Shown piece by piece: positions 47,163-58,600 of a stretch of DNA of 64,000 bases. Numbering within the stretch: the stretch's first letter is position 1; every line of letters begins with the position of its first letter. The notes below the pieces were generated by a model that saw only the letters and a list, made by a program, of their open reading frames with translations, searched no databases and was not told the origin of the DNA. Both the position numbers and the translations under genes were made by a program. The DNA is from an uncultured virus (IMG/VR IMGVR_UViG_3300028887_000111) (lineage: Duplodnaviria; Heunggongvirae; Uroviricota; Caudoviricetes), in the IMG/VR virus record IMGVR_UViG_3300028887_000111, positions 1 through 64,000 of that record; one strand, written 5' to 3'.

Positions 47163-48368
47163 TTAGCACCCATTCACTACATTAATTATAGTAGGTGTTA
47201 GACACACCTCTATCCCATAGCTAAAAGCATCTGGAAATACCTTTCTAATTATCTGCAAACTGCCGTTTACGTCTGAATTGATTAGAGTATTATTTGCTTG
47301 AAACAACCCTCTTTTAACTCTCCGTCTTTTATTGTAATTTTCTTTACACGGTAGTTCTCCATCTAAAAAACTTGTTCCACTTGTATAACTTTCTTCAGTT
47401 TCAACAAACTCAATGCCTACATCTTCACATTTATATTTAAGCTGTTGTATCAACATTTTATAAGGAATAAAAACAAAGTTCTGCGAATTTACTTTATCCA
47501 TTCTAAGGTTCTGTTTCCACTCGTCGTTATGTCCTACAACTAAAGTATCTATCTGATGTTGTACACACCATTTGACTATGTAATGGCTTGCGTGGTGCAT
47601 ATAATTCTTGACTCTGTTGAACCGCTTGAAAGTTATTTGTTCAAGTTGTTTACTCCAAAACTGACCTTTGGGTAATTTAGATTGTAGTTCAGATCTGCGT
47701 TTATTATAGAATTGGTTTATGCTCTTTAATCCTCTACCGTTAATAATAAATGGCTGCTCACCAATATTATTTGAAGTTGTAGCAAGATTATTAACACCTA
47801 AATCAATTCCTACAATACGCTTGTTATCGGACATAGCATCAGGAACTTCAATCTGAGATACTATCTCCATGACGTATACACAACCCTTTGGGACAAATCT
47901 CACTTGAATTAACCTGCCGACACATCTGCATTTCCACCTAACGGATTGCAATTTGAGCACTCTAAATTTCAGTTCCCCATTCTCAAAATAGCAAGCGTTG
48001 TTTGGTATCATCCAATTGAATCTACCATCTTTCTTGAGATATTTTGGCATTTGAGGTCTGCCGAGAAATTTCTTTGGGTTCTTTTCATACTCTTTCAAAC
48101 CTTTAAAAAATGACTTCCAATTCTTATCAAGCAAACGCAGAACACAATTCGCAGGTTGGCTCATACAATCTTTATATTGCTGATGTGTTTTGAGATTGAT
48201 GTTCATTTCTTTGTATGAGACATATCGTTTGTTATTAATATATTCCTGCCTAATAATATAATTAGCATAATTATAAAGATTCTTCGCATTAAAGCACATT
48301 TCGTCAATGACACCCCACAACGAATGCGTCCTGCGGATAATCTGTTGTTCTACTCTGTTCGCAATCAT
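47163..48368 (-). mobile_element. tnpB: TnpB-family RNA-guided nuclease (IS200/IS605 group), no tnpA nearby
   Basis: KNLYN, GIDLGVNNL, QLKYK, EESYTS, DVNGSLQI. Confidence 0.9.
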
Positions 48369-48423: not shown

Positions 48424-49170
48424 TTAATTTTCACCATCAATCCTCTTTTTAGCTATCTCAAAGTAGTTCTCATCAAGCTCTATGCCTATAAAATCTCTGT
48501 TGGTGTTCTTTGCTGCCACGCCTGTTGAACCGCTACCCATGCAATTGTCAAGCACTAAGTCTCCTTCGTCTGTATAGGTCTTAATGAGATATTCAAGCAG
48601 AGCAACAGGCTTTTGTGTGGGGTGGAACTTATCTTTATCATGGGTGAACTTCTGTACATCTCTCGGATAACGTGTGCCATGATTGACTGTCAACTGTTCC
48701 TTTGACCATTTCGTGTCATAATTGGTGCTGGCTCTACCTGATATTGCCGTATAAGGTTTGCCCTCTGTCATCTGAGGATAATACTTCATTGCGTGAGATT
48801 TGTCTTTGACATAGCAAGCTGCACTCTTGGAAAAGATTAATATATTCTCGTGTGCTTTCATAGGAGCAAAGTTGCAATTCAATCTGCCAGTAGCCATAGG
48901 TTTCTCCCATATCCATTCATACTTCAGCATATCAAGATTGCTTGCCCCTAATACCTTATCAAATGGCGTTTGAGCAAAGAGTGCTATACAACCATTGTCT
49001 TTTATGATGCGTTTGTACGCCCCCCATAGAGATTCAAGATTAATGGTGCTATCCCATTTATTCTTAGTAGTACCATAAGGAAGATCGCAAAGAATCAAGT
49101 CTACACTCTTATCTGGAATACCGCCCATTAATTCAAGGCAGTCGCCTTGCCATAATTCTATATTGCTCAT
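48424..49170 (-). CDS. N6-adenine/N4-cytosine DNA methyltransferase (beta class)
   Basis: DLPY, HPTQKP, DNCMGSGSTG. Confidence 0.93.
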   Translation of the reverse strand: MSNIELWQGDCLELMGGIPDKSVDLILCDLPYGTTKNKWDSTINLESLWGAYKRIIKDNGCIALFAQTPFDKVLGASNLDMLKYEWIWEKPMATGRLNCNFAPMKAHENILIFSKSAACYVKDKSHAMKYYPQMTEGKPYTAISGRASTNYDTKWSKEQLTVNHGTRYPRDVQKFTHDKDKFHPTQKPVALLEYLIKTYTDEGDLVLDNCMGSGSTGVAAKNTNRDFIGIELDENYFEIAKKRIDGEN

Positions 49171-49601: not shown

Positions 49602-50510
49602 TCAATTAATCGCATCATAAATTTTACCTATCTCATATTCATATTTGTCAATAGGCGTTCTCTTGTAAAAATCACAATAACATTTGCCGTCATCGTGAAT
49701 GACATATTCAATGCCTTTGGTATACTTCGTGGTATCTGCTACTCCTTGCAGAAAGAACACTCTCATTCTGTCTTTACGTCTTAATCTGCACCACCATGAA
49801 TCAGATGTATGCTCGTAATTGATAATATCAAATTGATCTTCCTTTTTGCTATCAAACATATAGTTGGTGAAATAACCTTTATAACGCCAAAATACATCGC
49901 ATCTAAACCTTACTGAAATAAAACCTTGTTGCTGCGCCCAATTGATAAAATTATCTCGCCACCGATTAAAGTTTTCAATCGGACGAAAAATAACAGCTAC
50001 CGCCGATACAGTAATACCAACAGAGTTTAATCGAGAGATAATTCTTTTATAGGCTAAAGCTGGCGTATGAATTTGCATTATGTTCTCTCGCTCTGCTTGT
50101 CTATAATCGTGAACTGAGATGTTTACATAATCCACAACATCTCTCATTAACTCAATCGGTATCTGATAAAGGTTAGTGCCATTAGTTGTCATAGTAACTC
50201 TCAACACTTTATCCTTTATGTGGAACTCTCTTAGCTTAATCAATACAAGTGATAACAAATCGACATCAAGTGTAGGCTCACCACCTGTAATATCAAGAGA
50301 TACTGGATTCTTGTCTCCTATTTCATTTAAGAGATGTTCTAAAGACGGGATAAAGTTATCTAAAAAACCTTTTATATCATATTGTACTACAGGCTTATCT
50401 TTGTTGTAGCAGAACGGGCACTTCGCATTACAGCCACAAGGAATCACCAATTTAACAGAGATAACCTTGTTGTAATCTTCTCGTTCTCGAAAGAAAATCA
50501 CATTACTCAC
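49602..50510 (-). CDS. Radical SAM protein
   Basis: CNAKCPFC, TGGEP, TTNG. Confidence 0.9.
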   Translation of the reverse strand: MSNVIFFREREDYNKVISVKLVIPCGCNAKCPFCYNKDKPVVQYDIKGFLDNFIPSLEHLLNEIGDKNPVSLDITGGEPTLDVDLLSLVLIKLREFHIKDKVLRVTMTTNGTNLYQIPIELMRDVVDYVNISVHDYRQAERENIMQIHTPALAYKRIISRLNSVGITVSAVAVIFRPIENFNRWRDNFINWAQQQGFISVRFRCDVFWRYKGYFTNYMFDSKKEDQFDIINYEHTSDSWWCRLRRKDRMRVFFLQGVADTTKYTKGIEYVIHDDGKCYCDFYKRTPIDKYEYEIGKIYDAIN

Positions 50511-50546: not shown

Positions 50547-50705
50547 CTACTTTTTGGCTATTCTACGTTGTAAAATTTTGGGTTCTCGCTGCCCACCTTG
50601 CATTGTAGTGAGTGAAGGAGAAATACCCCCCCCACTGTAACAACGCTTGATAACATCCATGCCTTTAATCGGCAGATTTACTATCACTTTTATCTCGTTC
50701 TTCAT
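50547..50705 (-). CDS. TRD-like mini-protein 9 (52 aa), G8 tract in frame
   Basis: AAGGAG RBS; MKNEIK...RCYSGGGISPSLTTMQGGQREPKI. Confidence 0.75.
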   Translation of the reverse strand: MKNEIKVIVNLPIKGMDVIKRCYSGGGISPSLTTMQGGQREPKILQRRIAKK

Positions 50706-50856
50706 GTTTGCTCCTTATAAGCATTTTAGGCTCAGTGTTGCCACCTCTGCCTATGCCATTCAATGTGGGAGATACCCCCCCCGTAGTGTATATTCTGCGC
50801 CGACACTCCGTCCACTGTGGAATTTTGAGTTCGGCTATTTGTTTTAATTCATTCAC
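50665..50856 (-). CDS. TRD-like mini-protein 8 (63 aa), G8 tract in frame
   Basis: AAGGAG RBS, GTG start; RIYTTGGVSPTLNGIGRGGNTEPK. Confidence 0.75.
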   Translation of the reverse strand: MNELKQIAELKIPQWTECRRRIYTTGGVSPTLNGIGRGGNTEPKMLIRSKHEERDKSDSKSAD

Positions 50857-51007
50857 TTTTTATCTCCTTAAAGGCGTAGTGATAACTACCTCCACTGATA
50901 TTTGAACAATGACACATACCTACACAACAGCCACTATATATTCTATGCTGCTGATGGTATTGAGTGCCATAATTCTTCTCTCCTACCCCCCCCACCAGTT
51001 TTGGCAA
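50849..51007 (-). CDS. TRD-like module 7, G8 tract in frame, start uncertain
   Basis: PKLVGGVGEKNYGTQYHQQHRIY...GGSYHY; TTG start without a clear RBS. Confidence 0.55.
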   Translation of the reverse strand: MPKLVGGVGEKNYGTQYHQQHRIYSGCCVGMCHCSNISGGSYHYAFKEIKSE

Positions 51008-51021
51008 GGAAGTGAAAGGGG

Positions 51022-51288
51022 TTACTGAAAAGAAAATTCAAGCTGTCTGTCTACATTGGAGAACTTCTCGTCATAACACTCATAGTCATTATCATACTGT
51101 GCTTTATAAAGGTGTTCTGCTAACAGTTCAATGCAGTTTGTTACGATGCTGTTGCCAGCCTGTCGGTAGAGCTGAGTATCACTCATACCTACCGCCTTGC
51201 ACTTTTCTACATCTTCATTAGTAAAACCCATCAGTCTCCAACATTCGGTAGGAGTTAATTTGCGGATAGCCCAATCTTCAACGTTCAT
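51022..51288 (-). CDS. C5 methyltransferase C-terminal subunit (motifs IX-X)
   Basis: IRKLTPTECWRLMGF, LYRQAGNSIV; AAAGGA RBS before ATG 51288. Confidence 0.85.
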   Translation of the reverse strand: MNVEDWAIRKLTPTECWRLMGFTNEDVEKCKAVGMSDTQLYRQAGNSIVTNCIELLAEHLYKAQYDNDYECYDEKFSNVDRQLEFSFQ

Positions 51289-51514
51289 ACTATCATTCCT
51301 TTCAATTCTGTATATATTGCAATTACCTGCGGTGAGAGTAGGGCAGGTTTGCCCCCCCCCTCTGAACTCTGCCACGACGCAGCTTTGAATTTGGATAGGA
51401 TAGGTCAGCCACTCCACCATTCTCACAAAGGATATATCCTTGCTTCGTAGCTTGTTTTACCCTTATGTAATCTTTACTTTCATCGGGAGATAAGAGATCG
51501 TGCACATCACTCAT
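51289..51514 (-). CDS. TRD-like module 6, G9 tract out of frame (G8 would fuse it to the motif IX-X subunit)
   Basis: KQATKQGY...DLSYPNSKLRRGRVQ / GGQTCPTLTA. Confidence 0.8.
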
Positions 51515-51680
51515 TTTTATCTTCCTTTCTGACTTTCTTTAGAAGCACCCCAGTTCTTGCTTTCTGTTGATTGCTAACTCCGTTGTCATATCTTGTTAAA
51601 ATACAACTTGCATACTGCATAGGGCAAGGTTTATTCACAGTCATGTCCACCCCCCCTATGGTTATGTATTTGTCTGGCAT
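51507..51680 (-). CDS. TRD-like mini-protein 5 (57 aa), G7 tract in frame
   Basis: MPDKYITIGGVD...ASCILTRYDNGVSNQQKARTGV. Confidence 0.7.
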   Translation of the reverse strand: MPDKYITIGGVDMTVNKPCPMQYASCILTRYDNGVSNQQKARTGVLLKKVRKEDKNE

Positions 51681-51827
51681 TTCTTAACCCTCTTTATCAA
51701 TATCTTCTTGGCATCTTTGTAATCTCTGGAAAGTATTGTCTTAGAAATACCCCCCCCCGCTTACGACAATGCCTTGCTCACTGTAATTGGTTGGCAATGC
51801 CACCGCCACTCTTATCTGATTTTTCAT
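51662..51827 (-). CDS. TRD-like mini-gene 4, G9 tract out of frame
   Basis: With G8 reads MKNQIRV...SGGGISKTILSRDYKDAKKILI. Confidence 0.7.
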
Positions 51828-51967
51828 CTTTACTTACCTTTCTTATTAGTATCTTACAGGGATCTTTGTGTTCTCTCGTGGATAGAGTACACATACCCCC
51901 CTACGGAATACAACCGCCCATTATGTTCATACATATTAGGCATTGTCATTAGCAGTTTTACGTTCAT
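51778..51967 (-). CDS. TRD-like mini-gene 3, G6 tract out of frame
   Basis: With G5 or G8 reads MNVKL...RLYSVGG(G)MCTLSTREHKDPCKILI. Confidence 0.7.
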
Positions 51968-52107
51968 TTTTTCACCAACACTTTCGGAACTCCTTTGTAG
52001 TCTGTTGATTTGAGTGACCACATTGCACCCCCCCCACTGGCTACTTCTTGATTTTGATGTTGCTTACCAGTAGAGGGAAGGACTCGTCCCACATATTTTA
52101 TTTCCAT
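51964..52107 (-). CDS. TRD-like mini-protein 2 (47 aa), G8 tract in frame
   Basis: GGAG RBS; MEIKYVG...SGGGAMWSLKSTDYKGVPKVLV. Confidence 0.75.
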   Translation of the reverse strand: MEIKYVGRVLPSTGKQHQNQEVASGGGAMWSLKSTDYKGVPKVLVKK

Positions 52108-52203
52108 TGAACTACTCCTGTTGCACCAAATGTGCCTTTAAATTCTGAATAGCTGTTTTAGCATACTGCTGTTTAAGTGTGCGACAATATCCGTTCTGGT
52201 CAT

Positions 52204-53169
52204 TCATCGGAACTGCCCCCCTATAGTGACATCGTTAGATGTATAGATAGGCTGATTGCAAATAATGCCGTAATTAGGGAAGTCATTGCGTGTCTCATAC
52301 AGCTCATTCCATAGTTCTTCTTCCTCTGAGAGTGTGCCGTTATTAGCCATCTCATCAAGTGCCTTACCAGCAGCATCAGATGTGAGAATATACTTCTCAT
52401 TCACATCAAAGTCAAGAACATGGAATAAACGTATGCCCGTATCAAATGCCTGTGGAAACTCAAACTTACCAGTGTCTACATCCTTGCGTATACTTACAGC
52501 AAATACGCGTTCCCGGTTCTGAGGTATGCCACAATCCTTTGCATTGACTATCTGCCAATAAGTGTTATAACCAATCTCACTGAGATAATCGCACCACTCA
52601 TTAAACTGTGGCTTAAATCTCTGTGATACAAGATTCTTTACATTTTCAAGAAGTAAGAACTTCGGCAGAGTGTCTGTCTCTTTAGCCTTTGCGAGTAAGC
52701 GTTCTACTTCATAAAGCAAACCGCTTCGTGTCTTACCACGTTCAATGCCCTGAATCTGACCAGCGATGCTGATGTCGGTGCATGGGAACGAGTATGTTAC
52801 AAAGTCTGCATAAGGCAATTCTTCTATCTTTGATATGTCTCCCATATTCTTAGAAAGAACTGATGCCAGATAATACTTCTTTAAGTCTGCACTGTTGCGT
52901 TTCTTCTGCCAGTCATAAGCCTTGTTCTTCTCAAAGACATAGCCAATGTTACGACTTTCAAGGTACTCCACCATTTCATCTACGGGCGGATAATCATAGT
53001 TCTCAATAAGTTCTGGTGTAAGTCCACAGTGAACGGCAGCGTAGCTCACGATTGCATCTTTGTCAATCTCTGATGTTGCTATTACCTCAGTGTCAAATAA
53101 ACCAGAGTTTTTAAATCCTCTGATCTGAGCACCTATGCCAGAAAATAATTCAATCATTGTCAACTTCAA
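52204..53169 (-). CDS. C5 cytosine methyltransferase N-terminal subunit (motifs I-VIII), ending just after a G6 tract
   Basis: FSGIG, SFPC, LENV, QNRERVF; lacks motifs IX-X. Confidence 0.92.
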   Translation of the reverse strand: MKLTMIELFSGIGAQIRGFKNSGLFDTEVIATSEIDKDAIVSYAAVHCGLTPELIENYDYPPVDEMVEYLESRNIGYVFEKNKAYDWQKKRNSADLKKYYLASVLSKNMGDISKIEELPYADFVTYSFPCTDISIAGQIQGIERGKTRSGLLYEVERLLAKAKETDTLPKFLLLENVKNLVSQRFKPQFNEWCDYLSEIGYNTYWQIVNAKDCGIPQNRERVFAVSIRKDVDTGKFEFPQAFDTGIRLFHVLDFDVNEKYILTSDAAGKALDEMANNGTLSEEEELWNELYETRNDFPNYGIICNQPIYTSNDVTIGGQFR

Positions 53170-55007: not shown

Positions 55008-55553
55008 TTACGTTAGTGATTTTTCATATTTGTGCAGCTCTCGCATCTCCAATTTGCTCGGAAGGAAGTCTCTGCAAAAATATGCCGATCCAAAGTGGTT
55101 GCCCTTAGTGTATGTAGTCATATTGCCATTAGTGTGATAATCTATTCTTGCATCAAAGCACAACATCTGAATCTCGTTTTGAAATATTTTAAACCGCTTC
55201 TTGCCCTGTATACTATTGCAAGGCAGAAGGATTGCAAAAGGTTTACCGAGTTCAAAAGCTCTCTGCAACACATCGTCCTTTTTACTAAAAGGCGGATTGC
55301 TTATCATTATGTCCCACTTCTCAGGTTCATAATTGAAGAAGTCTTGACCTTCAGCAAGAGAACTTCTAACTACGTCATACCCCCCCCGCTTGAATGTCTG
55401 GTAGAACGCCGACCATTCCTCGTCAAACGGACACCAAATCGTCTTATCTTTTGGGATAAACTCAAGCAGAGGATCAACCGCATAGTAGGGAGTGTATACT
55501 TCATCTCCTGCCGCCGTGCGGTCACAAGTTAAATACCCAACATTTAAAGGCAT
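55008..55553 (-). CDS. Short adenine-methyltransferase-like protein with an in-frame G8 tract
   Basis: DEVYTP, IWCPFD, SNPPFS. Confidence 0.8.
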   Translation of the reverse strand: MPLNVGYLTCDRTAAGDEVYTPYYAVDPLLEFIPKDKTIWCPFDEEWSAFYQTFKRGGYDVVRSSLAEGQDFFNYEPEKWDIMISNPPFSKKDDVLQRAFELGKPFAILLPCNSIQGKKRFKIFQNEIQMLCFDARIDYHTNGNMTTYTKGNHFGSAYFCRDFLPSKLEMRELHKYEKSLT

Positions 55554-57517: not shown

Positions 57518-58600
57518 TTAAAACAAAGCACAGCCTTGCCTCTTAAAGTCTGCTACTGCATTATCCCATGCCTCATTATCTAAGCAACAAAGTTCTTTCA
57601 GATGCTTCTTGCAGTAAATCTTGCTTGTTCCTCTGCCGAGAAGTTTCAGATTCATTGCAAGCACATCATTCTGTCTTACGTTCCTACCGCACACTTCGCA
57701 AGTCTTGTTGAAGTATTGCAAAGCCGTATCATAGTTGTCAAGTCCTTTGTGCTCCATAAACTCTGTCACAACTTCTTCTGTTGGTTCTGGTCTAAGTAAA
57801 CCACCATTCCAAGCTCCGTTTACATATTCGTCTATAGTGCAATTCAGCTTAGTCCAGCGATTCTCCTGCGCAAAGACTTTGCGCAGGATGCTGCGCCATC
57901 GGTCATACGCCATGCGATACCAATACTTATCTAATACCCAAGTGTACTTGGTGTAATACGGGCAAGCCACTGAACACCCAACTCTACTATATCCCTTACG
58001 GTATTTAGGATTTATTTCAATGCCGTTTTTAAGAATATAGAGCCATATGTCAAGCTCACTCCACTTTCTTATAGGCAAGCAACTAAACCAATCACGATCT
58101 CCCCACTTTGGATTGTGCGATATATCCTGTCGGTCTGCTCTCTGCGCTGATTCGTCATTTCTCACGCCCATAAAGAAAAGCATCTGTGGTTCACTATCAA
58201 AGTATTCTATGCTCTTACCTTCCTTGAATACTGTACAGCAACCACGGCTGAATCTTGTGGGAATGAAATGCTCTTTGAAGATGTATTTGTAGAACCCAAT
58301 GTCGGGATTGATAATTGTCCAGTCTTTATGAGCTTTTACCATTTTATAGGTATCGCCTGTATCAAGAGTAGTGTTATTGAAGTGAACACCCACATCAGGT
58401 AAAACACGAGTTACCAAATCAAGAGTTACCATGCTGTCTTTACCTGTAGATGTAAATACTACTTTCTTGTGATTCGGATAGTCCTGTATCGCCTTGTTGA
58501 TAACGCTCATTGAGTCTGCAATTCTGTCATCAAGTTCCCCACTGAGCCTTGCTATGGTCTGCTGCCAAGTCTCAAATTGTTGCGAAAGTTTGATTTTATT
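57518..58600 (-). CDS. PAPS-reductase-family (PP-loop) protein, body; its 5' part is on the inverted segment
   Basis: STGKDS, CCTVFK, GVRNDES..R, RVGC..CP; frame is open up to the inverted repeat. Confidence 0.88.
   Translation of the reverse strand, partial: NKIKLSQQFETWQQTIARLSGELDDRIADSMSVINKAIQDYPNHKKVVFTSTGKDSMVTLDLVTRVLPDVGVHFNNTTLDTGDTYKMVKAHKDWTIINPDIGFYKYIFKEHFIPTRFSRGCCTVFKEGKSIEYFDSEPQMLFFMGVRNDESAQRADRQDISHNPKWGDRDWFSCLPIRKWSELDIWLYILKNGIEINPKYRKGYSRVGCSVACPYYTKYTWVLDKYWYRMAYDRWRSILRKVFAQENRWTKLNCTIDEYVNGAWNGGLLRPEPTEEVVTEFMEHKGLDNYDTALQYFNKTCEVCGRNVRQNDVLAMNLKLLGRGTSKIYCKKHLKELCCLDNEAWDNAVADFKRQGCALF

Follow-up and report, generated by a model that had tools for sequence, protein, structure and literature searches.

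Multispecific C5 cytosine methyltransferases (C5-MTases) are reportedly found in Bacillus phages, where M.SPRI, M.Phi3TI, M.Rho11sI and M.H2I, enzymes studied in the Trautner laboratory, are said to combine one core with several target-recognition domains (TRDs) of ~40-50 amino acids (aa), each with a T-L type motif. We analyzed a methyltransferase locus in a 64-kb window of the 72.7-kb virus record IMGVR_UViG_3300028887_000111; its coding strand is the (-) strand, and all positions are those of the window. Like the Bacillus phage enzymes, it is a phage-borne C5-MTase with several ~40-50-aa TRDs carrying a T-L type motif, whereas its TRDs are separate overlapping open reading frames (ORFs), its core comes in two pieces and every TRD bears a poly-G tract. 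Among GenBank phage methyltransferases, the closest are <50% identical. Our best explanation, which we hold to be moderately probable, is a phase-variable modular anti-restriction C5-MTase composed of a split core and poly-G-gated TRDs, the free TRDs included.

In PMC3404938, M.AquI and M.EcoHK31I are described as two-subunit C5-MTases, fragments split in the variable region assemble non-covalently, and fragment complementation is established for M.BspRI, M.BsuRI, M.HhaI and M.SssI. As in M.AquI, so far as that text describes it, the large subunit of the present locus carries motifs I-VIII with some of the variable region, and the small subunit carries the remainder and motifs IX-X. M.AquI and M.EcoHK31I, however, appear there as two pieces with one specificity, whereas the locus has up to seven further TRD-only ORFs and homopolymer switches. 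Bacterial phasevarions comprise Type III mod and Type I hsdM/hsdS genes with simple sequence repeats, according to PMC12707154. The mechanism proposed here resembles theirs, as presented there, in that slipped-strand mispairing in an intragenic repeat switches a methyltransferase or its specificity, and in that HsdS is a separate specificity subunit. It differs in that those systems are N6-adenine enzymes of Type I/III on bacterial chromosomes with one tract per gene, whereas this one is a phage Type II-like C5 enzyme with a tract per module.

In 2021, Sorensen reportedly described poly-G tracts in the genes for receptor binding of Fletchervirus phages of Campylobacter. Contingency loci have been described in T-even phages in a preprint that also mentions an unstudied poly-G tract in a methylase gene of a Bordetella phage (bioRxiv 10.1101/2025.10.21.683753). 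The locus has in common with these the homopolymers in phage genes and the idea of frameshift diversity as bet-hedging; those examples concern receptor-binding or other single genes, and no multi-TRD methyltransferase with a tract per module is described among them. Our literature search found no paper on a C5-MTase whose TRDs are encoded apart from one another and gated one by one by repeats. Multispecific TRDs, a split core and contingency tracts are each known; their combination is new.

A split core and separately initiated modules

The locus is a C5-MTase in pieces: a large (alpha) subunit, a small (beta) subunit and seven separately initiated TRD minigenes (Table 1). The PF00145 match is divided over two ORFs (E 3.9e-48 and 3.8e-9), which align to complementary stretches of the profile, and the C5-MTase motif set is present, with LFSGIGA, FPCTDIS, LLENVKN and QNRERVF in the 321-aa ORF and RKLTPTECWRLMGF and GNSIV in the small ORF. 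Motifs I-VIII and IX-X are encoded on separate ORFs split in the variable region, an arrangement of the M.AquI type. The alpha subunit starts with TTG, 7 nucleotides (nt) downstream of the Shine-Dalgarno (SD) sequence AAGGAGG, and ends in its present G6 state with NDVTIGGQFR and the stop codon. The ORF encoding motifs IX-X (51456..51022) lies 1 kb downstream of alpha. The N-part of beta (…SKLRRGRVQRGG) and its C-part (QTCPTLTAG…RKLTPTECWRLMGF…GNSIV) are in separate frames at G9 and joined at G8. An internal ATG at 51288 (MNVEDW…, 88 aa) is conserved, with GAAAGGA 8-9 nt upstream in 6/6 loci, and in out-of-frame states of tract 6 it could yield an IX-X core that lacks a TRD.

Each of modules 2-5 and 7-9 is initiated by its own start codon, situated at the boundary of the TRD, and ends in a stop that overlaps the next start; modules 7-9 are placed downstream of motif X. 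For TRDs lying outside the canonical VIII-IX interval there is a precedent in a single polypeptide that is not known to have repeat switches. Stops in all frames flank each module, and no path that shifts frame only at the tracts joins the modules. The locus does not form one multispecific polypeptide, covalent attachment being possible only for TRD1 (at G7) and TRD6 (at G8). An earlier note on this DNA, made from the sequence alone, had stated that most modules have their own ribosome-binding site and overlapping starts and stops. The overlaps are there, and SD-like sites precede 7-8 of the 9 module starts (for these 4-mers, the frequency at random positions is 10.6%, and 34 of 58 long ORFs are preceded by one); module 7, an HhaI-like TRD (…QHRIYS…) whose window allele is divergent from its relatives, lacks one. 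The exact module 2 protein belongs to a 13-member database cluster. Module 5 occurs in databases in forms of 57 and 45 aa and is homologous to an in-chain TRD of a single-chain relative (L005). In module 1, the window has a 7-nt deletion behind 52138 (TAGACTG, + strand) compared with the related locus L004 and with contigs of 4/4 other runs, and this deletion alters the TRD1 tail from …NLQSKGTFGATGVVQWK to …NLKAHLVQQE.

Nine poly-G tracts on glycine pairs

Reading through the strand and counting runs, we found nine G6-G9 runs on the coding strand of the locus (C runs on the + strand), with lengths, in the order of tracts 1-9, of 6, 8, 6, 9, 7, 9, 8, 8 and 8. All nine are present where the earlier note had placed them, at the lengths it listed, and its division into in-frame modules (2, 5, 7, 8 and 9) and out-of-frame modules (1, 3, 4 and 6) is correct throughout. 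Seven runs of at least 8 were observed, whereas 300 shufflings of the 64-kb window gave 0.29 on average; for runs of at least 6, 0.18 are expected per 1.7 kb, with a Poisson P(>=9) of ~4e-13. The note's count of one further run of at least 6, in another methyltransferase, was too low, the window having two (Table 1). In the whole 72.7-kb record, 11/11 runs of at least 6 are G on the (-) coding strand and lie inside methyltransferase genes. GGG is the rarest glycine codon (7.3% in 48 long ORFs), and just 2 of 83 Gly-Gly pairs in long ORFs are encoded as GGG-GGG; therefore, the tracts are no by-product of glycine coding. The homologue of the 181-aa EcoRI-like methyltransferase in L011 has G7, with the preceding base altered, and is still in frame.

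Table 1 Coordinates of the locus features and of the two further tracts in the window (ON, in frame; OFF, out of frame).
Feature	Position	Strand	Description
Large (alpha) subunit	52204..53169	(-)	321 aa; motifs I-VIII; PF00145 positions 30-195
Tract 1	52216..52221	(-)	G6, OFF; at C-terminus of alpha; G7 would fuse TRD1 in frame to alpha
Module 1 (TRD1)	52112..52215	(-)	…YCRTLKQQYAKTAIQNL…; own ATG (52207) overlaps the stop of alpha (ATGA)
Module 2 minigene	51964..52107	(-)	47 aa; tract 2 52028-52035, G8, ON; SD CAGGAG
Module 3 minigene	51778..51967	(-)	ATG 51967; tract 3 51896-51901, G6, OFF (G8 or G5 = ON); C-part MCTLSTREHKDPCKILI
Module 4 minigene	51662..51827	(-)	ATG 51827; tract 4 51750-51758, G9, OFF (G8 = ON); C-part ISKTILSRDYKDAKKILI
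Module 5 minigene	51507..51680	(-)	57 aa; tract 5 51650-51656, G7, ON
Small (beta) subunit	51022..51514	(-)	TRD6, motif IX (RKLTPTECWRLMGF) and motif X (GNSIV); ATG 51514; PF00145 positions 260-323
Tract 6	51352-51360	(-)	G9, OFF; inside beta; G8 = ON
Module 7 minigene	50849..51007	(-)	TTG start, 52 aa; tract 7 50986-50993, G8, ON, right behind start codon
Module 8 minigene	50665..50856	(-)	GTG start, 63 aa; tract 8 50775-50782, G8, ON; SD AAGGAG
Module 9 minigene	50547..50705	(-)	ATG start, 52 aa; tract 9 50626-50633, G8, ON; SD AAGGAG
Tract in N6/N4 methyltransferase gene	49020-49025	C6 on + strand	PF01555; gene 48424-49170 (-); in frame
Tract in adenine methyltransferase gene	55380-55387	C8 on + strand	181-aa EcoRI-like/NPPF adenine methyltransferase (PF13651, phrog_799); gene 55008-55553 (-); in frame

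Identity of the modules

The modules are genuine C5-MTase TRDs, as the earlier note had proposed: module 9 matches an in-chain TRD of a 549-aa single-chain relative (L021) with 54% identity over 46 aa (E 7e-15). The unit is ~40-50 aa long, carries a T-L/I/V motif and is homologous to C5-MTase TRDs. Among 1.84 billion representative proteins, module 9 had 291 matches with E<=1e-3, both in-chain and free-standing, including long multi-TRD enzymes such as P0121 (659 aa, many tandem TRDs). The module 9 TRD profile gave only a weak alignment to PDB sequences, at M.HhaI 228-257 (E 0.54), the TRD part with the T-L motif. A proposed resemblance of modules 8 and 9 to the neighboring single-chain enzyme proved faint: module 8 does match its variable region, with 29% identity over 42 aa (E 0.01). 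ORFs of 43-67 aa that consist of a free-standing TRD alone also occur in other metagenomic lineages, several of them (P0125, P0126, P0132, P0174 and others) without GGG at the tract site, and two-TRD ORFs of ~100 aa are present in the database as well.

Length variation of the tracts among relatives

Relatives were compared at 11 non-redundant loci, after L003 and L017 (same contig; 100% identical to the window, 2901 nt) and L020 (same contig as L004) had been dropped. Homologous tracts ranged from G5 to G10, and 17 of 58 were in frame. The tracts are length-polymorphic among relatives and switch frame, in agreement with the phase variation that the earlier note had suggested, and are not invariant. 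They show the hallmark of contingency loci, a homopolymer inside a gene that is of unequal length in close relatives and thereby shifts the frame. Tract 1 was G5 in one locus, G6 in six, G7 in three and G8 in one; the three loci with G7 (L012, L014 and L015) have fused alpha-TRD1 ORFs of 352-359 aa, and P0307 is likewise fused. Tract 3 is G8, and ON, in L011 and L013. Module 5 was in frame in 5/5 carrier loci, three with G7 and two (L011 and L013) with the interrupted tract GGTGGGG. Between the loci L014 and L016 there are 3 substitutions in 1515 nt and two unequal tract lengths, with no other indels; between L004 and L012 there are 96 substitutions and three unequal tracts, again with no other indels.

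Protein databases hold both states. The 90%-identity cluster of alpha has 133 members, and the 15 listed span 296-359 aa, with forms of 321, 322, 356 and 359 aa (356 and 359 aa being fused). An in-frame beta (P0001, 160 aa, 92% identical, …RGRVQRGGQTCPTL…) heads a cluster of 82, and P0016, an 85-aa ORF that starts at the internal Met and is gene-called in out-of-frame alleles, heads a cluster of 54. The beta C-part was matched at E<=1e-10 by 222 small proteins of 59-191 aa; among the 120 listed, 19 combine TRD6 and motifs IX/X in a single ORF, and the internal Met is the start of 15. P0285 and P0296 were spurious cluster members.

Hints of within-sample heterogeneity came from Logan contigs of four other runs from four studies, not from raw reads. 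Contigs of run X2 have one- or two-base indels at tracts 1, 6 and 9, run X19 has two alleles at tract 6, and contigs break at tracts. Contig depth has holes (50788-51078 in three runs), to which we attach no meaning. Both ends of the L004 contig have G7 at tract 9, with no within-contig difference.

Poly-G is error-prone on several sequencing platforms. The true tracts might be fixed and in frame, with miscalled homopolymers mimicking frameshifts in sequencing or assembly, and L004 has G7 at six tracts where G8 would be in frame. We nevertheless regard such an artefact as very improbable: lengths differ by up to 5, in both directions, among 11 assemblies from several sources, and the Logan contigs of run X2, made with a different assembler though maybe from the same sample, have L004-type lengths at the three tracts listed (1, 6 and 9). 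Module starts and stops are independent of tract length, and in-frame and out-of-frame protein forms are both abundant.

Slippage might instead occur at expression, with RNA polymerase or the ribosome slipping on G7-G9; each genotype would make small amounts of all modules, and the tracts would then tune dosage and not act as heritable ON/OFF switches. Such slippage would suit the out-of-frame tracts, most of which are one base off an in-frame length, and the strong conservation of beta despite its being out of frame in 5/5 assemblies. DNA-level length differences between near-identical contigs are, however, seen directly, and slippage at expression is compatible with phase variation and not exclusive of it; we consider it quite unlikely as the reading of these tracts.

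Selection on the modules and on the tracts

Nei-Gojobori counts were made on both sides of the tracts. Nonsynonymous differences per site (pN) were far below synonymous ones (pS) on both sides, with small counts per segment: the beta C-part had 16 synonymous and 1 nonsynonymous differences between the window and L011, and the beta N-part had 8 and 1 between the window and L004. In the C-part of module 8, pS was 0.43-0.81 and pN 0.03-0.06; the C-part of module 1 gave 0.90 against 0.12 and module 7 gave 0.69-0.74 against 0.13, with module 9 behaving likewise. The modules are under strong purifying selection although they are often out of frame.

The tracts themselves are selected for. Module 8 of L011 uses ordinary codons for its first Gly site and carries G7 at the second Gly-Gly (GIGR-GG-NTEPK), and in the beta subunit of L019 the tract is at the ENGGVADLS site, not at RGGGQTCP. 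Where a different module, M4', stands in place of module 4 (L004, L011, L012, L014 and L016), its tract is at the second Gly-Gly motif. Tracts have been kept and re-created against codon bias, which argues for selection on mutability itself. Taken together, tract polymorphism, purifying selection, moved tracts and rare GGG point to contingency loci, not to decay or assembly error.

Decay would mean that a multispecific methyltransferase broke at mutation-prone homopolymers and became a non-functional pseudogene array. It would account for ~1/3 of tracts being in frame, as at random, for the 7-nt deletion in module 1 and the divergence of module 7 in the window, and for the existence of deletion products. 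We give it hardly any weight, as pN falls far short of pS on either side of the tracts, indels are nearly confined to tracts (0 others in several pairwise comparisons), tracts are maintained and relocated despite rare GGG, and the architecture is conserved among relatives at 75-100% identity.

Deletions between tracts and exchange of modules

Three tract-to-tract deletions were found, joining the M4' N-part to beta (P0004), the module 5 start to beta (L014:2286-2340) and alpha to the M4' tail (P0310), so the tracts are hot spots of recombination or deletion as well. Some beta subunits carry other TRDs (P0028, P0045, P0052 and P0139), and modules are swapped between relatives (M4 versus M4', M2a versus M2b). 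These three fusions, the beta subunits with other TRDs, the exchanged modules and the lack of a predicted fold for an isolated module would all suit an alternative in which only the covalent TRDs (TRD1 on alpha and TRD6 on beta) work and the other minigenes are a reservoir of cassettes, moved to the sites of expression through recombination or deletion, be it between poly-G tracts or between co-infecting phages. Silent cassettes, however, need no boundary starts, SD sites or stop/start overlaps, all of which are conserved to relatives at 75% identity. Moreover, the deletions are one-way, the P0310 product lacks the TL motif, and free TRD ORFs without poly-G exist elsewhere. We judge the cassette alternative rather unlikely.

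A model of poly-G-gated specificity

In the mechanism that we propose, the ancestor would have been a single-chain multispecific enzyme with several tandem TRDs between motifs VIII and IX, and in this clade its gene would have been broken into a large subunit, a small subunit with one TRD, and a row of overlapping TRD minigenes, nearly every TRD having a poly-G tract on a conserved Gly-Gly. Slipped-strand mispairing in replication would alter tract length and set each TRD in or out of frame independently. TRD1 would be gated onto the large subunit and TRD6 onto the small subunit, and the others would be gated as ~50-aa products. The population would then hold many combinations of methylation specificity, as a hedge against host restriction systems and methylation-dependent nucleases. 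Switching would be reversible and frequent within a lineage, and presumably of biological benefit to the phage, whose population can probably vary which sequences are methylated and so escape host restriction.

In-frame free TRDs would assemble non-covalently with the alpha/beta core and add specificities. In its full form, the proposal is that free ~50-aa TRDs act in trans, docking on the split alpha/beta core like HsdS in Type I systems, that they are gated by poly-G, giving hundreds of methylome states, and that recombination at tracts makes chimeric TRDs; we put this forward tentatively, as something less than an even prospect. Comparison among relatives supports the phase-variable, modular reading well; the trans-acting mini-TRDs are plausible and are the least secure step. 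The conserved starts and SD sites, the free TRD ORFs elsewhere and the known assembly of fragments count for free TRDs acting in trans. The figure of 2^9 independent states, given in the earlier note, is overstated: tract 1 gates the alpha fusion, tract 6 gates TRD6 and possibly the whole of beta, module 5 was in frame in all five carrier loci, and module 1 of the window has the 7-nt deletion.

Several observations weigh against a phase-variable enzyme with functional free TRDs. The share of tracts in frame (17/58) comes near the one third that lengths drawn at random would produce, and beta is out of frame in 5/5 assembled loci. The six tracts of L004 that are exactly one G below the in-frame length would also fit systematic under-calling of homopolymers, and the tract differences that hint at within-sample heterogeneity are differences between contigs only. 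Some attrition is under way, seen in the 7-nt deletion in TRD1 of the window and in the tract-to-tract deletions. We found no tested precedent for a C5-MTase TRD as a separate polypeptide. In IMG/VR, 77 of the best 80 loci with module-9-like TRDs have them in-chain and 3 have them free, the free ones all in this phage's clade. AlphaFold2 predicted no confident fold for module 9 alone, with a mean confidence (pLDDT) of 56.0 from 11 sequences and 56.3 from 46 sequences, values that are too low to search for similar folds and that say little on whether the module is autonomous.

If confirmed, the locus would be a counter-defence in which a phage hedges its bets by diversifying its epigenetic protection, with one switch per recognition module, and would extend contingency loci to phage anti-restriction methylation, beyond bacterial surface and restriction-modification genes and phage receptor-binding genes. 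Should the free TRDs work in trans, the enzyme would be the first of the C5-MTases to have specificity subunits that detach, and a natural case of modular re-targeting of 5-methylcytosine. For annotation, it matters that gene callers report such loci as many unnamed ORFs of 45-160 aa.

Relatives of the locus

All relatives at 74-100% identity have the split layout and poly-G tracts; by their labels, they come from bovine and goat gut metagenomes and similar sources. A more distant relative (L005, alpha 58% identical) and ~30 metagenome loci (~50%) are single chains, mostly of 453-555 aa, with 2-4 tandem TRDs. The multispecific phage C5-MTases, with which the earlier note had compared the locus, are the right comparison. 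No G run of at least 6 was found in these single-chain relatives. The simplest history suggested by these comparisons is that a single-chain multispecific enzyme was broken up in this clade. A single-chain relative with a ~50-aa TRD-like insert after motif X, near the C-terminus, was seen at L047:5001-6623 and in L048; its place can be compared with that of modules 7-9 behind motif X.

Poly-G also occurs in other methyltransferase genes. At L143:3500-5320, on a gut Clostridia metagenome-assembled genome (MAG) contig, a multi-frame C5-MTase has a module-2-like TRD, a G8 run and, at the second Gly-Gly of a TRD, a G7 run; it seems to be an array of the same sort, interrupted by poly-G, that does not belong to the rumen clade. 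An intact 462-aa C5-MTase from a Bacilli MAG (L162:4130) carries an in-frame G8 within the catalytic half (…GRQAGGDA…), which may switch the whole enzyme. Poly-G near L080 (1847, 1893 and 5819) and L099 (1700 and 1746) belongs to an intergenic repeat, tacggtcat(ggg)GGGGGG, of marine-type phage contigs; it may be a regulatory repeat and is unrelated to the methyltransferase.

Genome setting

The window is from a tailed rumen phage that encodes a terminase, a portal, a DNA polymerase of its own and an anaerobic ribonucleotide reductase, and the locus lies within a cluster of five methyltransferase genes. Among GenBank phages, we found no close DNA relative and no protein >50% identical. A search of MAG contigs with the alpha alignment gave no match; with the beta alignment, the nearest matches were MAGs of gut Clostridia and others, with 57-80% across the IX-X core, at loci that are mostly single-chain, a few being split or having poly-G. 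Tentatively, and on this resemblance, the host may belong to the Clostridia. A related phage has G7 21 codons into a PP-loop/PAPS-reductase-like gene (…SGGADS…; L004:4586 and L006:4586); the PAPS-reductase-like gene of the window (57518-58510, phrog_424) is without a G run of at least 6. A transposase-like ORF at 47163-48368 (-) (phrog_506, E 7e-45) borders the methyltransferase cluster. Directly downstream of the array is a radical-SAM protein at 49602-50510 (-) (PF04055, with a weak QueE-like PHROG match), which may be another DNA-modification gene.

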